NCBI GenBank assembly: GCA_963847625.1 | Contig: CAWKAR010000013.1 | Location: 120,733-184,732 of the forward strand | DNA length: 64,000 nucleotides | Source: a candidate division FCPU426 bacterium | GTDB taxonomy: Bacteria > Oederibacteriota > Muellerivitia > Muellerivitales > Muellerivitaceae | Reading direction: 5' to 3' | Shown here: one piece after another, positions 54,975-64,000 of the stretch | How the letters are laid out: every line of letters starts with the position of its first letter | Position numbering within the stretch: the first letter of the stretch is position 1 | Translations under genes and position numbers: made by a program | The notes under the pieces: generated by a model | The model's input: only the letters and a program-made list of their open reading frames with translations | Told to the model about the DNA's origin: nothing | Databases searched by the model: none

Positions 54975-56306
54975 TTACGGATGAGCGGGAGTGGAAACAG
55001 GGTTCCGCGCAGGGCCCGGTCCGGCCAAACTCTCGGCGGTCCGAAGGCATTCTTCCGCCAGGTCTTTCTTCCCCGCTTTTTTGTAGGCCCAGGCGAGTCT
55101 TTGGTAGATCTCGGGATTTTTTTCGTCCAGTGCCGCTGCGGCTTGAAGCGCCTCAATTTGACCCGCCGTCCGGCCCAGGGAATAGTCGGCCGAAGCCAGG
55201 TTGATTAAATAAAGCGAGTTTTGGGGATCCATCTCATGCGCCTTTTTAAAAGCGTCGGCCGCCTCTTCAAACCGTTTCAAGTTGAAATAACCCGTCCCCA
55301 GGTCGTCATAGTTGGGTGGATACCCAGGTTCGCACCGGACCGTTTCCCGGGCTTCCTCCAAAGCCGCTTTCGGATCGCCCAACTTCTGGTAAGCCATGTA
55401 AAGACAGTTGTGCGGTACGGGATCTTGGGGGTTGAGAGCCGCTTCTTCCTTGAATTCCCCGACCGCTTCCTGTGTCCGCCCCAGGTTCAAAAGGGCGTAT
55501 CCTTTTCCCCCGCGCAGGGCAGGTTTTCGGGGGTTTAGCTCGACGGCCTTTTCGAAAGCCGGCAGGGCATCGGCCCACCGTCCCGCCAGCAAATAGGCGT
55601 CACCCAAGTTTTGGTAGAGGATGACCGAGTTGCCTGGTGCTACTTTCGCCGCGTTCTCCCAGAGACTGACTGCGTCCTTCCAGGTTTCAATCTGCCGGGC
55701 CGTCATAATCCCGAGCACCACCGCCAATGCCCCCATCCCGAGAAAGAAGGCCATCCGTCTTTTATGGAGCGGCACTGCCAACGCGGCGGAGAGGAGCAAA
55801 AAGGGAGCCAGGCTGGGAATATAGGTGTAACGGTCGGCGGCGGCATGGGAGCCCACCTGGACAAGCCCCAAAACCGGGGCCAGAGTGGCCAGGTAGTAAA
55901 GCCAACTGGCGCTCAGGTATGGCCGCTTCCCTCGGAGAATAAAGCAAGCAGCGGTCACCAGCAGAATAAGAAAAAACGATCCCATGGATTCGGTGAAGAA
56001 TTTTTCGCCAAACAACATAAGGGGATAAAACCCGGACAGGTCCGTGGGCACCGCCATTTTCCACAGGTAGAACAAGACCGACCGGGAGGCGTTGAGGAGG
56101 CGCAAGTCGATGGGCGAGGTTTGCAAGGTCTGCAACGCTCCTTCCCGGACTTCCGCCACCGTCGTGACCCATCCCGCCAATATCGCCAGGATGAAAAACG
56201 GGATTTTTTCCAGGAGAGCCTTCCGCAAGTCGGAGGCAAAGCGTTTCAAGGGCCAATAATCAAACAGTAGCAGGACCACCGGCAGTGAAACGGCCATGGG
56301 TTTGGC
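54975..56306 (-). pseudogene. 5'-truncated TMTC-like membrane/TPR protein
   Basis: Begins mid-protein at AKPMAVSLPVVLLL.D; ADRYTY motif; multiple TPRs. The N-terminal TM domain is missing at the junction. Confidence 0.85.
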
Positions 56307-56366
56307 GGTCACCCTTCTGAATCCCCGCCACGGTGCTGTACGCCTTCCCCCTCGCCTCCCTCCCGA

Positions 56367-56570
56367 CTACAACAACCGAACACGCGTTTTCAGGTCCGTC
56401 TTTCCTGCGACAACAGCTTTGGAATTCTCAGAAGGCCACACGACAATTTCCTCATAGCAAGCTGTGCCAAACATCTCTTCATGCGTCGGTTCAGTAAACA
56501 GCATAGGAAATGCGGCCTCCAATTTGCCGTCGACGTTCAAGAAACTCAGTGGCGTTGTAATCTTGTCCAT
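56367..56570 (-). CDS. Small hypothetical protein
   Basis: 67 aa from MDKITT with GGGAGG RBS. Confidence 0.4.
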   Translation of the reverse strand: MDKITTPLSFLNVDGKLEAAFPMLFTEPTHEEMFGTACYEEIVVWPSENSKAVVAGKTDLKTRVRLL

Positions 56571-57457
56571 CTGTCCTCCCCGTCTTTCTGCAAAGATACT
56601 CTGACAGCCCCAGGTTTGCAATCTTATCTCATTTGCATTTTCGTCTCAATCCCTTTGCACTTTGCTACCCGCAATATGCCGTTCCTCCCGTAGGCTCCCA
56701 GAACAACCCGCCAATCGTCTCCTCTTGTCCTTGTCGTCTCACGTCTTTTGCCGATACTCAGCCCTGAGCCCCCGAAATCGTCGGCGGCCTGCCTGCCGAA
56801 GTGCCCTCGGCACGCAGGCAGGTGTGCGTTGGCGGCCTAATCAAGTGCGTTCAAATGTCGGTGAAACACAACCTGAAGATCGAGACTGCAGAACTCCCTC
56901 CTCACCGACATTTATGGCCTGTGTGTTGGCGGCTCTATCAAGTGGGTTACGATTTCGGCCTCCCTTTCCCGCTTCTGGATTCCGCTTACAAGCGGGATTC
57001 AAAGAGCGGAACTTTGGTTGCTTTTCCCGCCCTTTTGGGATCCCGCACGGTTTGCATGATCCTCAGAGCGGGACTTCGGAGGAGCGAAGAAAGTAACTGA
57101 CGCTCAAGAGCTCAATCATGCCGCGTCACACTCATCCGAACAATCCGCCCTTCGATTCCGCTCACATTTCCCCTCCCACCATTTCTGCCAATCGTTTCTC
57201 TTTGCATTTCAAATAGCCCATTCCTTATCTTGCCTCCGCATCATCAGACCATTAAAGTGACACACTGAATCCAACAAACAACCCTCAACACCATCCACTC
57301 ATTTTCGCAACACCTGCTTCATCTGTAACCGCGGATAGCAGCACATTCTCCACCAATTTCCTCGTTTGAAAATCTAGCCCAGAGTCCAGAGACCTTTTGA
57401 GTCCAGAGACCATTCGCCGGGGAGGACCCTTCTTTCGAAGCGGTTTGAACCGGCCAC

Positions 57458-58432
57458 TTGCACCTGATCTCTCTCACCAGGACCAGAACTCTGGATTCCA
57501 TCAAAATCATAGGCCGCAGCCCTTCTATCACAAGACTCAAGGCGAGAATCCCGCTCCTCGCGGCTGATCTTGAGCCTCTCGTGATCATAGGAGAGACTGG
57601 TGTCGGCAAGACGTTGCTCGCCAAAACCATCCACGCAAGTAGTGAACGAAGATCCTCAAATCTAGATTCGGTCAACTGCAGAATCCTGAGTGAACGCGAA
57701 CAAAGGGTGGCGCTTTTTGGTGGAGTCCCACCGGAACTCCAAACCACCCGGCGCGGTTGCCTCGAACCCCCATCGACGGTTGTCATCAAGCACATCGACC
57801 ACGCAAACCCATTCCTTCAAGATAAACTGGCCGAAGCATTGGGGAAGAAGAGAATCACAAGACTCGGATCTGACAACGTAGAGCTTGTTCTTTCTAGACC
57901 TATTTTTACTCTGCAACAATCGCTCCCCAGTCTCTATCACAAAGGAAGAATCATAGAGCCGTTCTTCCGCCGGCTCAGAGAATACAAACATGCCACCGTG
58001 CCTCCTCTCCGCGAACGGAAGGAAGACATACCACTCCTCGTTGAACATTTCTTGGATCAGTTCCTTGATCGCTGGAATGTTCTGGGGCCGGCTCGTGCTG
58101 AGGCTACACGAACGATCAAAAGTGGTGGGAGAATCGAAGCAGAACTCGTCAAGCTATTGAAGCATCAGAGGTGGGAAGAGAATGTTCTGCAGCTTAAGGC
58201 CTATGTCCGGAGCTTGCTTCAACCCAATCATCGAGATTCAATCCAAGAGCGGGAGAAAATCGAGGTGACGAAAATGATTTCGATGATAGAGGAAGAAAAT
58301 GAATTCTCCTTGCTTCAGTCTTTGGCGCTGATCCAGAGATGTATCATCGATCGGGCTCTGCAGCAGTGCGAAGGCAACCGAACAGCAGCAGCCGCGATGC
58401 TCGGACTTACCAAGCGATCCATCCACAGATGA
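57458..58432 (+). CDS. Degenerate sigma54-interaction (NtrC/Fis-type) regulator
   Basis: IIGRSPSI, GETGVGKT, VNC, VPPLRERKEDIPLLVEHFL and a Fis HTH are present. GAFTGA and the Walker B DE are absent. Confidence 0.8.
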   Translation: MHLISLTRTRTLDSIKIIGRSPSITRLKARIPLLAADLEPLVIIGETGVGKTLLAKTIHASSERRSSNLDSVNCRILSEREQRVALFGGVPPELQTTRRGCLEPPSTVVIKHIDHANPFLQDKLAEALGKKRITRLGSDNVELVLSRPIFTLQQSLPSLYHKGRIIEPFFRRLREYKHATVPPLRERKEDIPLLVEHFLDQFLDRWNVLGPARAEATRTIKSGGRIEAELVKLLKHQRWEENVLQLKAYVRSLLQPNHRDSIQEREKIEVTKMISMIEEENEFSLLQSLALIQRCIIDRALQQCEGNRTAAAAMLGLTKRSIHR

Positions 58433-58923
58433 TCTGGTTCTCAGGTCACCTCTAACGAATCTCCAATCTGTCTCGTCTCCCGTCTACTACTCCACTTCCT
58501 ACCAGCCCCGATCTAGCTCCGATCCCCCGTCTTTATCTCCAATCTGCTTCCTGTCTTCCGCACGCGCACCGACAATCGTCAATCCCAAATCGGAAACTCG
58601 TGGTGAGCACCTGCCCGCCGTTGCTAGCTCTCGATGGAAGGCGGGAAGCCTGCACTGAGCTGCGAAGAGTCGCGCCATCACAATTGCCCCGTCTTTCGTC
58701 TCACTCCCACAGCTTAGTCTATAGCCCTGACGTCTCCCGTCTCACCCCCCTAGCTTAATCCGTAGCCCTGACGTTTAACTACCTCAGTTTCTTCCCCGCC
58801 CAAAAAGTTCCCCCAAAAAGCAGGCTTTTATGCCTGCTTGTTTTCCCTCACTCGTTCCTCGTAATTGCTCCCCGGTTCTTTGAGAACCTGGTGCTGGGAC
58901 AAGCGTGAAGCATCATTGGTCGT

Positions 58924-58985
58924 GATAACGGTGATTTTTGAAGACGAGTTATCTGATAACACCCATTTTTAAAAACCGCGTTATC
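58924..58985. promoter_or_regulatory. Tandem palindromic sites upstream of the Xer-like gene
   Basis: GATAAC-N18-GTTATC-T-GATAAC-N19-GTTATC. Confidence 0.55.
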
Positions 58986-59054
58986 CAAACAAAATCGACA
59001 AGATCGCTGAAGGGCACCCCTTCTAGAAGAATTTTTTTTCAGAACCAGTTGCGC

Positions 59055-59917
59055 ATGGGCTTACGAGAAACCCCAGACATCACCGAAGCCACTATAGCCA
59101 GGTTCATCGAACATCTCAGGAAGAGCAAAATGTCAGAACAGACTGTAAGAGCGTATGCATCCGATGTAAACAGCTTCTTACACCGAGCAGCTGCGGGATC
59201 TAACTCCACTGATCTCGATTCCATCGTTGCGATGCAAACGAAGGACATCGAAGACTATCTATCCAGCCTCGCCCGCGCCGGATCGAAATTCGCATCTGTC
59301 AAACGAACATCGTGCGCCTTGAGGAACTTCTTCCTTTTCCTCGTTCACCAGGGCGTGATGAAGAACAATCCTGCTGTCGCACTCCGCGTGACACCTGTCC
59401 AGCCCGCCACGCTTTCACCCGATGACATCGTTTCCATCTTTCAACATCTCAATCATCGTCAGATCTCCGCCGAGGGTGGCGACGTGGTTCGGCACCAAAG
59501 GGATGAGCTTATCCTCTTCCTTATGATCTTCTTTGGGGTTCGCCAATGTCAAATCTGCACGCTCAAACTCTCTTTAATTCAAACAACCGCCAAGTCTGTA
59601 TCACTCATCATCAGCACAATGTCCACCCTGCGCCTCCACGCACAGGTCTGAGGAAACTTCGCTCATACCTCGAGATGAGAAACTCCAGCTCCGATGCCAT
59701 CTTTCTTGAATCCCTCGGAAAGAAACCACTCGATCACTGGGGCGTTCGCCATCTCCTGAATGACCTCAGTCAAGCTCTTCAGATTGACTGCTCGCCCAAA
59801 TCGCTGCATACCACCTATCTGCACTTGCAGCAGCATCAAGAAATCCGCGAGCCGCTCATCAGGCAAATCTTGTCAATCGGAGCTACCCACAACTACAGTG
59901 CGTCGCCAAATGCGTAA
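59055..59917 (+). CDS. XerC/D-like tyrosine recombinase homolog, degenerate active site; 1-nt frameshift at ~59648
   Basis: SEQTVRAYASDV...SCALRNFFLFL...NNPA; RDELIL...GVR. Continues in the 59546-59917 frame (SPKSLHTTY). Confidence 0.75.
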
Positions 59918-60295
59918 TCGCGATCTGTTTTGTCTCATCATCTTGTCGCTCCTGAGCAGTTGTAACCTTCCCTCCGCACTTGATGACCCGGAGTTGCTGA
60001 GCAGTCTCCGCTTCTCACCCAGCGCTTTCGATTCCTTCAAATCAAACACGCAAATCCTTTACTCGCTTAAGTTCCGGCCACTCTCAATGCTTACATCGCG
60101 AAAATCGATTCTGCTGGAAAGGAGTATCTCGTGAAGACTCTCGTCCTCAATGTTGCCGAATCAAAGGGCTCACACTCCCATACCTGGCTCGGCGATACCG
60201 ATGACGGATACTTCGCTCCGTCCGGGCTCTACATCGGCATAATCAAGATTCAGGAGCGACGTTTTGAATCAACAGTTCTGGTTTTCCACTACTAG
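59910..60295 (+). CDS. Lipoprotein with FlgD Ig-like domain; 1-nt frameshift at ~60072
   Basis: LSSC lipobox. After the shift it reads LVKTLV....ESKGSHSHTWLGDTDDGYFAPSGLYI...VLVFHY*. Start overlaps the recombinase stop. Confidence 0.7.
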
Positions 60296-60308
60296 CTCCT
60301 ACGGCTTA

Positions 60309-60336
60309 CCCCCTTGTTAAGGGGGGCCGGGGGGTC
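60309..60336. repeat. CCCCCTT..AAGGGGG..GGGGGTC palindromic repeat, copy 1
   Basis: Matches 62926-62955 in direct orientation. Confidence 0.65.
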
Positions 60337-60356
60337 ATACATCTGAGGAGGTTCCC

Positions 60357-62140
60357 ATGCACCCATCACCCATTCGAAGCCATCTCTCGCTCACAATCTT
60401 TGTCTTCTTCCTTGCAGCCCTGACACTAGCTGCATGCGAGTTGCGTCTCCAAATCCCACCAACATCTGATGCCCCGGATATGCCCAAATACGAATTCGAG
60501 GCCACTGGCGAAGATTATCTCGTTTCAGCACTGGATGAAGTCCACGCTATCGCCGACTGGGCAGAGACATTCACGAACGGACCCAACCGTTCTATCTCGA
60601 ACGACGCTTCAGTTGAACAGAGGTCTACACTGGCGAAAACCGCCATCGATACAGCCTATATCTATGGCCAAATCATCGCCGGAGGCTATGGTGCCGTTGT
60701 CACTGAGCGCTATGCATACCCCAAAGGTCTCTTGCTCATCACGATCAGAAAAACCTATGGCAAAGAAAATGGACACGTCGTCACGGAGACCAAACGCTAT
60801 GCATCTCACACGGACTTCCGCAACGACAATCCACAGCAAACGAACGTCACGGAGCTTTTCGGCCTTCAGAGGGACACGATCGTGACATACGTCTTACGCA
60901 ACGGAAGGCTTGAGACCTACACATTCCGGCTCCCTGTCATTACTAGAGTCGTGAATCCACAAGACGGCTCAATTCGTGTCACAACTCGCTATGCATCAGG
61001 TGGAGCCGTCGTATCGAAGGTCCAGGACGGTGACGGCAACCTCGTTCAACTTCGCAAAAGCTTTGGCGAGGCCAATGGAAGCGTTGTCACCCGCACAGAA
61101 TTCCCCGATCGCTCGTGGAGGCAGGTTCGCACCTTGGGGCAAGCTGATGGCACGATTCTCGCGAACCCATCAGGATTCTCATCGCTGGGCTCAGGTTGCG
61201 CAACACCCGCTCCCCGTCCCCCTATCCTCAAGTGCATGCCTCAGAGAACGCAAGATGAAGCTGCTCGCGCAATGACTGAGGAAGGGGCATCCCTTGCGCC
61301 CACTTTTGCATCTGGTTGTGCAACCATTCGACCGCCGATGCCGCCACCTCCTCCAAAACGATCCGTCATCCCACAACAGGTGCAGGCGAAGCCTCATACT
61401 ATAGGTTTTCCGGGCGAGGGTTCAACCTCTATGTCCCTGGCCTCTGGTATGCCATGTCCCCGGCCACCGATGCCACCTCCTCCTCCAAAACGCACCGTCT
61501 TCCCACGACAGGCGCAGGCCAAACCTCGCACTATAGATTTTCCGGCTGAGCGTTCGACATACATGTTCCTGGCCTCTGGTATTCCATGTCCCTGTCCACC
61601 GAAAACGATTCCGCCTCCCCGTGTTCCTACCACACACCTATATGAACCGAGCAAAGGTGACGGGATCGGTCTGAGCGATAGGGGGCTAGCTTTCAACCTT
61701 CTGGCGTCAGGAGGTGCAACGAAACCTCAACCGCCACCTCCCCCAACACCACAACGCAGAATGCTAAGTGAAGCGACCTGCGAGACCATGCCTGAGAAAG
61801 AACCAGTCTCGCGCTCTCTTGCATCTGGTTGTCCACTCAGACCTCCGAAACCACCGCTCTTCCCACCGGCACATCAACGCGTAATGGGAGAAGCTACCTG
61901 CGGGACCACGTCTGAGAAACAACAACTCTATCGCTCCTTTGCGTCTGGTGGTAAGTCAATAAACTTCCCCATCTCCCGCCTCCACCTCAGCTCATGCTTG
62001 GTGAGGCCACCAAAGATGCAGCCTCTCAGAAAGAGCTACTCTCTCGTTCTTTCGCATCTGGTTGCGCAGCAAGCAAACTCCCCAAAATACCGCCTCCTTC
62101 ATCGGCGGTATGTATGAATCTTCAAATGCACCAGCAATAA
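60357..62140 (+). CDS. Lipoprotein with beta-rich domain and eight (L/F)(A/G)SG + Pro-rich C-terminal repeats; 1-nt frameshift at ~61967-61970
   Basis: GAGGAGG RBS; LAAC lipobox. Repeat motifs at 61185, 61305, 61437, 61569, 61701, 61818, 61938 and 62051. The eighth is in frame only if one C is added. Confidence 0.75.
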
Positions 62141-62155
62141 TGTGAAGAACCTTCG

Positions 62156-62938
62156 ATGAGCTCAGGCAAGAAAAATATTCCGCGTCTCAAGAGTCGACTG
62201 CTTTCGCTCTCAAGATCCGCAACCTATATGACGCTCTTCCTGCTCATTGTCATTTCATGGGATATCCTGTATGGACAGACCGTTCCAGGTGGTGTGGGGG
62301 AAGGGGGAACGGTCCCCATCAGGATATCTCCTTTGTTCGAGGTCGATAGCACCCAGTCCATCAATCCGATGATTGACACCCTTGACATTCGACTGTTGCA
62401 GATTGAAATCGCCAAGGCGGAAGTCCGAGTGAACGAAACCAGCTTCTGGACGCGCATCATTCCGCAGGTTCACATTTCTGCAAGCTTCGGAATGCACGAC
62501 ATTATGTTTGTCGACCCTAGCACATTCACGCCATACATCCTCCCACGGGACGCTTACAGGTTGTCCGTCAGCTTGTCACTGAACGATCTCTTCAGTTCCT
62601 CAAAACACACTCAAGCTCTCCTTGAGTTCGACCAGCTGAGAACAGAAGAGTCCCGCCTGACGACGAAACAGTTCCAGTCACGCAAGTCCCTTGAACAGCA
62701 ACTGCTTGCGCTACAGGATCAAATGGCTTTGCTGGATAAAGAACTGGGCTTAATCAAGGAACTGCTCCACTTCAACGAACTACGTTTCCAACACGGCAAG
62801 ATCGAATTCGACGCCCTGATCCACAGCAAGCTCGAACTCATTAGCGCAACGAAGACCATAATGCAGCTCCACCAACAAGAAGCGCTGATTCGACAGAAAC
62901 TCACATCGGGAGACCCCAATGACATCCCCCCTTACTAA
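62156..62938 (+). CDS. Short TolC/outer-membrane efflux-like protein
   Basis: Signal-like segment; IPQVHISASFG and YRLSVSLSL strands; helical RFQHGKIEFDALIHSKLEL, typical of one OEP repeat. Start may be 62227. Confidence 0.6.
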   Translation: MSSGKKNIPRLKSRLLSLSRSATYMTLFLLIVISWDILYGQTVPGGVGEGGTVPIRISPLFEVDSTQSINPMIDTLDIRLLQIEIAKAEVRVNETSFWTRIIPQVHISASFGMHDIMFVDPSTFTPYILPRDAYRLSVSLSLNDLFSSSKHTQALLEFDQLRTEESRLTTKQFQSRKSLEQQLLALQDQMALLDKELGLIKELLHFNELRFQHGKIEFDALIHSKLELISATKTIMQLHQQEALIRQKLTSGDPNDIPPY

Positions 62939-62955
62939 GGGGGGCTTGGGGGGTC
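62926..62955. repeat. CCCCCCTT..AAGGGGGG..GGGGGGTC palindromic repeat, copy 2
   Basis: Contains the stop codon of the TolC-like gene. Confidence 0.65.
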
Positions 62956-62990
62956 CCCATCCCGCTGCGATAACAGAACACCGATGAACA

Positions 62991-64000
62991 ATGCTCAACG
63001 ACGCAACACAAATTGTCGCCGACGTGCCCGGAAAACACCTTGACCCCAAGTTACTCGTTCGCTCTCAATCTGGCGATTCATTGGGGTTCATCATGATCTC
63101 ATACGAACAGAAATCTGCAGCCTCGGATACATCCATGGAACGTTACTATGATCTTCTCTTCTTCCACGGAGCCGAAATCTACGATTCTCCGCGCATGAAT
63201 CGAGACCTTCGATTTCAGATCCGTGCAGAGGTTGTATTTCAGACATTTGCGAACTTGCGGCAAGAGGACCAGACACGGATCTCCCTCTACACTGCATCTG
63301 ACCAGGTTCTTAGCCGTTTTCAGTCAACCTTGCTCTATGAACCTTGTTTGAAAGTCCAGATAAAGGGGCTCACAAAGAACCAAATCGCGACGTTTCTGAA
63401 GGGCACAGACTGCCACAAGGGGATCATCGAATGCAATGAATTCATCGATTCAACTCCATCCATTGATCTCAGGGAAATCAACTCCCCCGACGACTTTCTC
63501 CATTATCAGCCGGCCTTCAAGCGGGGTCGTCTCCTCGTGTACAACATCGAAAAGAACAAGGAGCTCATCGAGCAGAGACACACTTCACAATTCAAACGAT
63601 CAACTCTCTCCGCCAGCGGTATTCGGGATGCGCATGACGATCAATCAACGGATAGCAATCGAACTGCCATTCAATTCTCCAATACTTCAGAACACTTCGT
63701 GACTGAAGAGGTGCTATCACCAGTCGACGAACAAGAGGCCGAAGAATTCACATCATTGATCAAACGGATACTCAATTCCCCGCCCTCATCCGAAACAAAA
63801 ACATGCATTTGCCCACCGCTTAAGCGGCGGGAAACCAGGCATCCAAGAAGATCTGCTATATCTCATGTTGAGCCGCATCCACCAGAGGTTCAACCCAAGA
63901 ACCAACAACCCGATTCAACTGAGTACATCAAGCTCATGGAACGCATCTTTCGGTCTTTTCACCAACAGCTTCTTGATTCCTTCGGCGACAAGTGCGATGC
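62991..64000 (+). CDS. Hypothetical protein, runs off the window end
   Basis: Manual translation from MLNDATQIVADVPGKHLDPK gives 336 codons with no stop. Absent from the ORF track because it is incomplete. Confidence 0.7.
   Translation, partial: MLNDATQIVADVPGKHLDPKLLVRSQSGDSLGFIMISYEQKSAASDTSMERYYDLLFFHGAEIYDSPRMNRDLRFQIRAEVVFQTFANLRQEDQTRISLYTASDQVLSRFQSTLLYEPCLKVQIKGLTKNQIATFLKGTDCHKGIIECNEFIDSTPSIDLREINSPDDFLHYQPAFKRGRLLVYNIEKNKELIEQRHTSQFKRSTLSASGIRDAHDDQSTDSNRTAIQFSNTSEHFVTEEVLSPVDEQEAEEFTSLIKRILNSPPSSETKTCICPPLKRRETRHPRRSAISHVEPHPPEVQPKNQQPDSTEYIKLMERIFRSFHQQLLDSFGDKCD

Follow-up and report, generated by a model that had tools for sequence, protein, structure and literature searches.

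A lipoprotein tail that may carry a library of host-peptide look-alikes in a mobile element of Ignavibacteria-type bacteria

A lipoprotein gene in the window (the whole stretch of 64,000 nucleotides of DNA that was analysed) ends in an array of repeated units, and one clade of its relatives carries similar tails. We propose, with a probability of roughly 0.45, that the tail is a library of look-alikes of a host peptide signal that would be cut before Ser-Gly. A more tentative extension is that, in a diderm phylum, a lipoprotein serves a mobile element as the carrier of diversifying mimics of host signals, so that one gene would cover many peptide types and the library would map the sequence space tolerated by a membrane receptor. 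Such an element may imitate or jam the cell-to-cell signalling of its host.

The array forms the last ~310 aa of the lipoprotein ORF (Table 1). The original prediction, made from the letters of the DNA, was of a multi-core peptide precursor with eight repeated (L/F)(A/G)SG sites. These motifs are there, seven of them in frame (61185, 61305, 61437, 61569, 61701, 61818, and 61938) and the eighth, FASG at 62051, in a different frame with a stop at 62138–62140, but they make up the C-terminal tail of a 586-aa ORF and not a free-standing precursor. Successive motifs are 40, 44, 44, 44, 39, and 40 codons apart, followed by 113 nt. In the 4.43-Mb genome, the ORF at 60357–62117 is the only stop-to-stop frame, of those with at least 80 aa, to have more than three [LF][AG]SG motifs, and the array is not due to chance. 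The cores predicted for units 1–6 and 8 can be read from the sequence as given. Unit 7 had been assigned the core GKSINFP, and this reading has to be replaced. At ~61952–61953 an extra base is present in L003, L007, L008, and, from run X1, a near-identical contig (the sequencing-run comparison being with low-depth contigs of relatives), so unit 7 becomes SGG-x-VNKLPHLPPPPQ, as in P0004 and P0013. Thus, a one-base loss does hide unit 8 as proposed, but at this position and not at 61967–61970. The ending of unit 8 is common to P0002, P0004, P0009, P0012, and P0013.

Table 1. Coordinates of the features of the window around the lipoprotein gene. A slash marks the bond between the Phi-A and S-G residues of a unit.
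Feature	Position	Strand	Remarks
Host gene cut at its 5' end by the junction	54975..56312	-	TPR-bearing membrane protein, at least 13 paralogs in G000
Junction between G000-type DNA and foreign segment	56313..56318	.	Cuts the host gene mid-frame
Sensor-less sigma54-activator-like regulator	57458..58432	+	Without GAFTGA; PxxTT[KR]R loop common to the host peptide-system regulator
XerD-like tyrosine recombinase	58938..59917	+	Split by a one-base loss at 59647
Small FlgD-Ig-like lipoprotein	59910..60295	+	Split by a one-base loss at ~60070; neighbour in 22/26 loci
Lipoprotein ORF as assembled, 586 aa	60357..62117	+	Relatives imply that the true frame reaches the stop ending at 62140
Lipoprotein signal peptide, LAAC	60357..60434	+	Cys codon at 60432 (Cys26)
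Conserved domain, ~250 aa	60435..61184	+	One helix, then ~15 antiparallel strands (predicted)
Three-base loss	61158..61167	+	ANPSG here, RETTSG in relatives; frame restored
Unit 1	61185..61304	+	LG/SG-CATPAPRPPIL + spacer
Unit 2	61305..61436	+	FA/SG-CATIRPPMPPPPPK + spacer
Unit 3	61437..61568	+	LA/SG-MPCPRPPMPPPPPK + spacer; 132-nt duplicate, neighbour 83% identical
Unit 4	61569..61700	+	LA/SG-IPCPCPPKTIPPP + spacer
Unit 5	61701..61817	+	LA/SG-GATKPQPPPPP + spacer
Unit 6	61818..61937	+	LA/SG-CPLRPPKPPLF + spacer
Unit 7	61938..62050	+	Disrupted by a one-base loss at ~61952-61953
Unit 8	62051..62140	+	Shifted frame, FA/SG-CAASKLPKIPPP, then stop
Half-length outer-membrane-efflux (TolC-like) protein	62156..62938	+	Neighbour in 25/26 loci
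Conserved uncharacterised protein	62991..64000	+	Cut by the contig end; neighbour in 22/26 loci

The window is the end of contig C13, and the tetranucleotide composition of bases 56301–64000 correlates at 0.46 with the genome mean compared with 0.76–0.91 with seven Ignavibacteria-type loci. Genome G041 matches the segment from 56318 onward, and the conserved domain was not found in the 40 relatives of G000 that were searched. In the seven printed paralogs of the TPR gene that is cut at the junction, 209–259 further open codons lie upstream. Relative to other copies, bases are missing at 59647, ~60070, 61158, 61165–61167, and 61952–61953. The lipoprotein gene here probably stands on a mis-joined, error-prone contig end with single-base losses; alternatively, the segment may be a transferred element in decay. 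Given the likely mis-join and the base losses, the window copy is a poor reagent, and P0002 or L003 is cleaner.

Before the array lie a lipoprotein signal and a conserved domain, neither of which the original prediction mentioned. The lipoprotein Cys is conserved in at least 90% of 44 rows. The domain had no match in Pfam, NCBIfam, or PHROG. A first model of it had a pLDDT of 57 and a second, of the L003 domain (88% identical to that of the window; 123 rows), a pLDDT of 84; fold searches with both returned no PDB match at E ≤ 0.001, and the best Z scores, 6.4–7.6, were to generic sheets. BFVD gave one row for the domain model, with an E of 1e-4 but a TM of 0.19, and an Atlas search gave no usable match for either the domain or P0148. 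An analogy with the CPAP G-box was dropped at a Z of 5.8 over 55 residues. As modelled, the carrier is a beta-sheet domain without a family or a clear fold match.

A homologue search found 43 relatives and a further one 295 at E ≤ 0.001, with 120 of these listed. Named relatives, among the matches listed, are proteins of Ignavibacteriales or Bacteroidota MAGs. Translation of 77 loci showed that most of these genes end a few residues past the domain, that 14 have ASG tails, and that some have a Cys-rich end. Tail-bearing lipoproteins are 337–616 aa long and contain Phi-A-S-G-x(4-8)-P[KR]P units, 1–12 per tail. A quick tree covering 104 of the 141 domains places the tails in one clade of 32 rows (SH-aLRT 97), which includes one member mislabelled Cys and one with a short end; the 37 sequences left out by pattern include tail-bearing P0004, P0020, P0028, P0035, P0036, and P0043. 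The tail originated in one clade and expanded by duplication. An in-frame deletion has removed ~135 aa of the domain from four database sequences, all of which retain the tail. Genome G043 has two copies of the element: in one (L094:982-1719) the ~135-aa in-frame loss goes with an intact tail, and in the other (L005:4923-5831) the first unit is frameshifted and the domain intact. A different clade (L006:4899-5954, L019–L021) has a short tail rich in Cys (six residues) that may bind metal.

A profile of the tail (65/73 units) was compared with 1.84 billion representatives and had 12 matches, nine of them in the lipoprotein family. The other three were P0147, P0148, and P0149. P0147 is a C11 protease with LASG 12-mers (E 1e-4), and we regard this link to clostripain as coincidence since two or more xASG sites occur in only four of 120 relatives and C11 proteases were not found in any of five genomes searched. 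P0148 is a singleton of 150 aa with a signal peptide and four 21-aa repeats that contain FA/SG and a P-Q-P-K-P block. It and P0149 are single sequences without genomic context and cannot be used as relatives.

To describe the units, 178 distinct examples from 37 proteins were compiled; S and G are fixed by the search pattern, and the site composition is L61/F21 - A69/G19/C8 - S - G. SG is followed by four variable residues and these by a Pro block; in 148 of the 178 units P[KR][PIVL] occurs within 13 residues. Twenty of 165 inner units are exactly 15 aa long with no spacer, and Cys directly follows the motif in only 13% of the 178. For 12 pairs, dN/dS was 0.09 in the domain, 0.12 in the motif, 0.56 at positions 1–4, 0.32 in the Pro block, and 0.47 in the spacer; the corresponding values for five disjoint pairs were 0.10, 0.12, 0.73, 0.44, and 0.59. 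These classes were defined from one sequence per pair, with blocks below 45% identity excluded. In 78 DNA units from 15 loci, the third codon positions of the motif are free to vary, which rules out a DNA-level repeat, and Rfam had no match in 56000–64000. These data show purifying selection on Phi-ASG at the protein level and drift of the next four residues, so all units of a protein come to differ: none of 591 pairs of units within a protein shares an identical 12-mer, and mean identity is 0.23. No signal of dN/dS above 1 was seen between paralogous units in the two usable pairs. The predicted layout of a fixed site with variable cores is thus borne out by the motif value of 0.12 compared with 0.56 for positions 1–4 and by the free wobble positions; ASG does show special conservation, and the repeat matched no described structural repeat. 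The term hypervariable suits positions 1–4 but not the P[KR]P block behind them, which is constrained.

The ends of the tails bear on where a cut might fall. In 13 of 36 tails, L[AT] follows directly after the last Pro block, and 24 of the 36 end in small non-polar residues; six tails of the window clade have polar ends, MHQQ or MHLQ. An L[AT] end lies at the position of the Phi-A/S-G bond and may mark a cut site or merely a duplication boundary. The original prediction was of a polyprotein cleaved at ASG and at basic residues. The polyprotein logic remains plausible, but the 15-aa units have neither a spacer nor a fixed basic site. Because of these spacerless units, the L[AT] ends, and the host cores that start at SG (see below), a cut before Ser-Gly seems likelier than one after ASG.

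The gene order around the lipoprotein gene recurs in 26 long loci: regulator, XerD-like recombinase (16 loci), FlgD-Ig lipoprotein (22), lipoprotein gene, half TolC-like gene (25), conserved protein (22), replication-initiator-like gene (12), PolX fragment (9), YdjM-type hydrolase (15), RadA-like gene (8), AAA ATPase (11), and integrase. The same neighbours, the TolC-like gene included, stand beside tail-bearing and tail-less genes. Of 401 genomes of the class, 21 have a match to the domain, two of these matches being at chance level; in the family it is 14 of 86, with two copies each in G043 and G155. A tRNA lies near the right end of the element in three of 25 loci (L024, L026, and L045). 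Integrases, a replication initiator, patchy multi-copy occurrence, and a tRNA at one end are traits of integrative elements, and the lipoprotein gene sits in a patchy, integrase-flanked mobile element of Ignavibacteria-type bacteria. Nine proteins scanned against PHROGs included no phage structure or conjugation genes, and no matching record was found among viral contigs, phages, and plasmids.

No known RiPP enzyme or peptidase was found among the neighbour clusters present in at least five of the 26 loci, for which cluster representatives were annotated. One recurrent neighbour without a family and one YdjM-type hydrolase both occur beside tail-less genes too. The recurrent neighbours also include no ABC exporter, immunity gene, or TPR family; nor do they include an 8-helix protein or S2P protease, both of which are present elsewhere in the same host genomes.

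Several smaller features were seen in and around the element. A tRNA-Thr lies on the minus strand within the element gene block at L026:13492-13572. In L020 and L021, a ThiF + JAB fusion and then a split ClpB-like ATPase (L021:843-4703) lie upstream of the element. Window positions 56821–56967 form a ~150-nt non-coding stretch with an internal 39-nt repeat and no Rfam match; further copies of the stretch lie elsewhere, in L005, L010, L117, and L171 (two in the last), next to loose contig ends. Two 41-nt tandem copies, 80% identical, lie between regulator and recombinase at 58690–58771, and an intergenic pair of short palindromic C-run/G-run elements, which we take to be REP-like, lies at 60298–60334 and 62916–62952.

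The host peptide to which we compare the tail is encoded in a gene cluster of Ignavibacteria-type genomes that comprises a small exported Pro-rich repeat precursor and, next to it, genes for an 8-helix membrane protein, an S2P protease, and a sensor-less AAA+ regulator. The cluster was found in G042, G043, and G044 and then, as 48 precursors, in 47 of 66 loci scanned; three of the precursors were added by hand, and many misses are contig ends. An M50 match is present in 43 of the 47 precursor loci. The 8-helix gene occurs in 32 of 86 family genomes and 115 of 201 order genomes and is not in G000. In host precursors, identical copies follow immediately after a short signal with N[FY]AIS, and exact core copies are present in 42 of 48. 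The cores are 12–13 residues long, mostly begin at SG (27 of 46), and end in P[KR]P. The residue before the core is R or K at 28 of 45 junctions, and several hosts have FA/SG, LA/SG, or IA/SG. The host peptide is a candidate signal and the 8-helix protein its putative receptor. At L186:2944-3445 and L193:728-1155 there are two tandem precursor genes per membrane gene, the L186 cores being slightly different.

Likeness between tail units and host cores can be seen by eye in SGANNPVAKPPV (G043 host) and SGVAMPIAKPPV (G043 tail), in SGATKMPTAPPP and SGAGHSKMPSAPPP, and in SGVTTSTKPPLP and SGVTTCPKPPIP (host core and tail unit, respectively). The grammar SG-x(2-9)-P[KR]P fits 134 of 177 tail units and 20 of 46 host cores compared with 27 of 8,051 SG sites in G000. 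Core lengths peak at 9–10 and 12–13 in tail units and at 12–13 in host cores. With SG omitted, the best-match score of tail units to host cores was 33.1 compared with 30.4 ± 0.2 for Pro-kept shuffles (40 shuffles, maximum 30.9) and 28.9 ± 0.3 for natural Pro-matched 12-mers; since the units are related to one another and so are the hosts, the controls here and in the comparisons below overstate the likeness. When the tails were scored with an HMM built from only the 46 host units, 15 of 37 ranked higher than every one of the 3,511 controls (2,985 G000 frames, 119 repeat-bearing C11 proteins, and 407 reversed or shuffled tails). Six cores of the tail-carrying host group, a set picked after the likeness was noticed, fit the 42 units of the window clade better than any of 2,000 random six-sets did (0.7% with Pro correction), while the remaining 133 units fit cores outside this set better. 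With a six-core HMM, P0012 and P0002 scored above all controls. In the 86-genome family, the 8-helix gene is in four of four tail-bearing and none of eight tail-less genomes, one fragment being unscored, and Cys-tailed G044 has it; the four tail-bearing hosts may be one lineage. Tail-less elements are also found in six genomes of other families with the 8-helix gene. After its own family, the element regulator is next closest to the host peptide-system regulators (E 1e-37 to 1e-40; others ~1e-22). A sister relationship between these regulators was dropped since the tree has three groups and no independent root.

Scores of the window tail with the two host-core HMMs were -27 and -32 bits; with the 46-unit HMM, each of the 14 tails of the window clade scored below 0. 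In a six-frame search of G000, bias correction left no window unit among the top 25 matches; without it, one ranked fifth. The tail profile does not retrieve host precursors, and hhalign of tail against host gave no match (probability 28%). Because the host HMMs fail for the window tail, and the reverse searches and hhalign fail too, common descent with the host peptide is not established, and the link of this tail to the host peptide is an indirect one that runs through its clade. A short Pro-rich grammar can converge. In four pairs seen, no unit was identical to a core of its own host, and the residue before SG is A, G, or C in the tail compared with mostly R or K at host junctions. Weak tail-profile matches in 11 other family genomes were put down to chance. 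Counts of T9SS tails, 11 in G000 and 39–106 in hosts, gave no clean separation.

If the tail is a mimic library, the lipoprotein signal would take the unfolded tail to the periplasm. Host proteases would cut Phi-A/S-G, as host precursors must be cut before SG, with trimming after the Pro block; a CtpA/Prc-type (S41) protease is one candidate for the tail. Once released, the peptides would bind to the 8-helix protein, where they would be agonists or antagonists for several types of host peptide; this binding would bias the host circuit or the element's own related regulator. As an alternative step, tail units might act while tethered. The protease, the sign, and the output in this scheme are guesses.

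It is possible, although unlikely, that the tail is never cut and forms a disordered multivalent arm whose Phi-ASG and Pro motifs bind a partner in the element or the envelope, in which case the likeness to the host would be convergence. Such an arm would fit with a tail that is joined to a folded and anchored domain, with recurrent neighbours that encode no protease, with a window copy that shows no significant homology to host cores, and with spacers that are weakly constrained as well (dN/dS 0.47–0.59). It is harder to explain in this way why most homologues are tail-less yet have the same neighbours, why the four sequences without ~135 aa of the domain retain the tail in frame, or why the L-A of the junction is where 13 of 36 tails end; moreover, units that all differ would bring a binding arm little gain. 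A cut tail could also be a Pro/Arg-rich library, antimicrobial or RiPP-like, that acts on other cells and is unrelated to the host signal. A fixed site with a variable core in 1–12 copies would agree with this, as would the TolC-like neighbour in 25 of 26 loci were it not equally found beside tail-less genes, and basic Pro-rich cores such as PRPPHPI seem to us reminiscent of apidaecin. We consider such a library improbable given that known modifying enzymes, ABC exporters, and immunity genes are all missing from the recurrent neighbours, that the tails have no Pfam antimicrobial match, and that Cys after the motif is as rare as 13% of 178 units; host cores also explain the invariant SG start better.

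The sites might instead be cleavage points only, where an S41 protease trims the tail unit by unit and each Phi-A cut exposes a new non-polar end; the tail would then be a timer or shedding signal and the peptides by-products. A study of spinach CtpA describes a cut at DLA/AI, with Leu at P2 most important and C-termini bound via the PDZ domain (PMC8909930), and the small non-polar ends of 24 of 36 tails (13 of them in L[AT]) would fit such trimming. S41 proteases were present in five of five genomes tested, with 4–7 per host, but they are near-universal (10 of 14 control genomes). Since trimming leaves the P[KR]P constraint, its fixed distance from SG, and the host likeness unexplained, and six tails of the window clade end in polar MHQQ or MHLQ, we give this reading a poor chance. 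Least credible is a functionless tail that arose when a low-complexity end was read through and duplicated in tandem by neutral processes. Although the tail is absent from most homologues and one genome has a frameshifted and a deleted copy, the dN/dS of 0.12 in the motif largely refutes neutrality, and synonymous variation across 78 units and open frames of up to 390 codons are also against it.

Multi-core RiPP precursors (cyanobactins, dikaritins) and apidaecin-type polyproteins repeat a fixed site and a variable core, and those of the apidaecin type have fixed basic and acidic processing spacers. The tail shares with multi-core RiPP precursors the conserved repeated site that flanks variable cores, but it is fused to a lipoprotein and has no leader, no nearby known tailoring enzyme or dedicated protease, and no fixed basic sites. 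P0001, P0026, and P0029 had no match in Pfam, and there was none in NCBIfam. With no match in these databases and no known modifying enzyme or dedicated peptidase nearby, the proposal that the array belongs with either group is not upheld. A close parallel is the exported repeat-peptide system of Ignavibacteria, which has the same SG start, 4–8 variable residues, P[KR]P, length of 12–13 residues, and several copies per gene, and which shares hosts and a related GAFTGA-less regulator with the element. By contrast, the tail units are all different, have Phi-A before SG, and are carried on a lipoprotein domain in a mobile element, with no N[FY]AIS short signal and no 8-helix or S2P gene beside them.

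In its proposed way of working, the tail is most similar to competitor peptides encoded on plasmids and to RRNPP propeptides with several peptides. Element-encoded peptides that compete with a chromosomal signal are described for pheromone-responsive plasmids of enterococci, where iCF10 opposes cCF10; a lipoprotein precursor takes part, as does the membrane metalloprotease Eep (PMC7117660). As described there, iCF10 is a single hydrophobic peptide of 7–8 residues that comes from a signal sequence and is sensed inside a Gram-positive cell; the tail holds many Pro-rich variants at a C-terminus in a diderm. RRNPP propeptides can hold several identical or pseudo-repeated pheromones, sometimes divergent, and 'multilingual' mobile elements carry several RRNPP codes, in both respects like the tail and its element; by contrast, they are small precursors of Firmicutes beside a cytoplasmic TPR receptor, with at most six copies and no folded carrier domain (PMC9765709, PMC10075063). 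We found no sequence relation between RRNPP propeptides and the tail.

Peptide signalling and its exploitation by mobile elements have been described mainly in Firmicutes. In a search of main texts, with subscription papers mostly outside it, we found no literature on the lipoprotein family or the host peptide system. If our reading of the tail holds, it would be a form of mobile-element peptide signalling not previously described in the literature searched, namely a polyvalent library of mimics that an element encodes in a Gram-negative lineage. It would also be independent evolutionary evidence that the host cluster of precursor, 8-helix protein, and regulator is a real signalling circuit. 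The ~46 host cores and 178 tail units are a ready set for synthesis and trial on the membrane protein.

Apart from the lipoprotein family, the C11 proteases P0147 and P0155–P0273, some of them from Pyrinomonadaceae, have tandem repeats of 7–13 aa after the catalytic domain. These repeats are near-identical within a protein, differ between proteins, and are closed by a conserved TVIKNF-like motif; such proteins are possibly protease-fused multi-core precursors.
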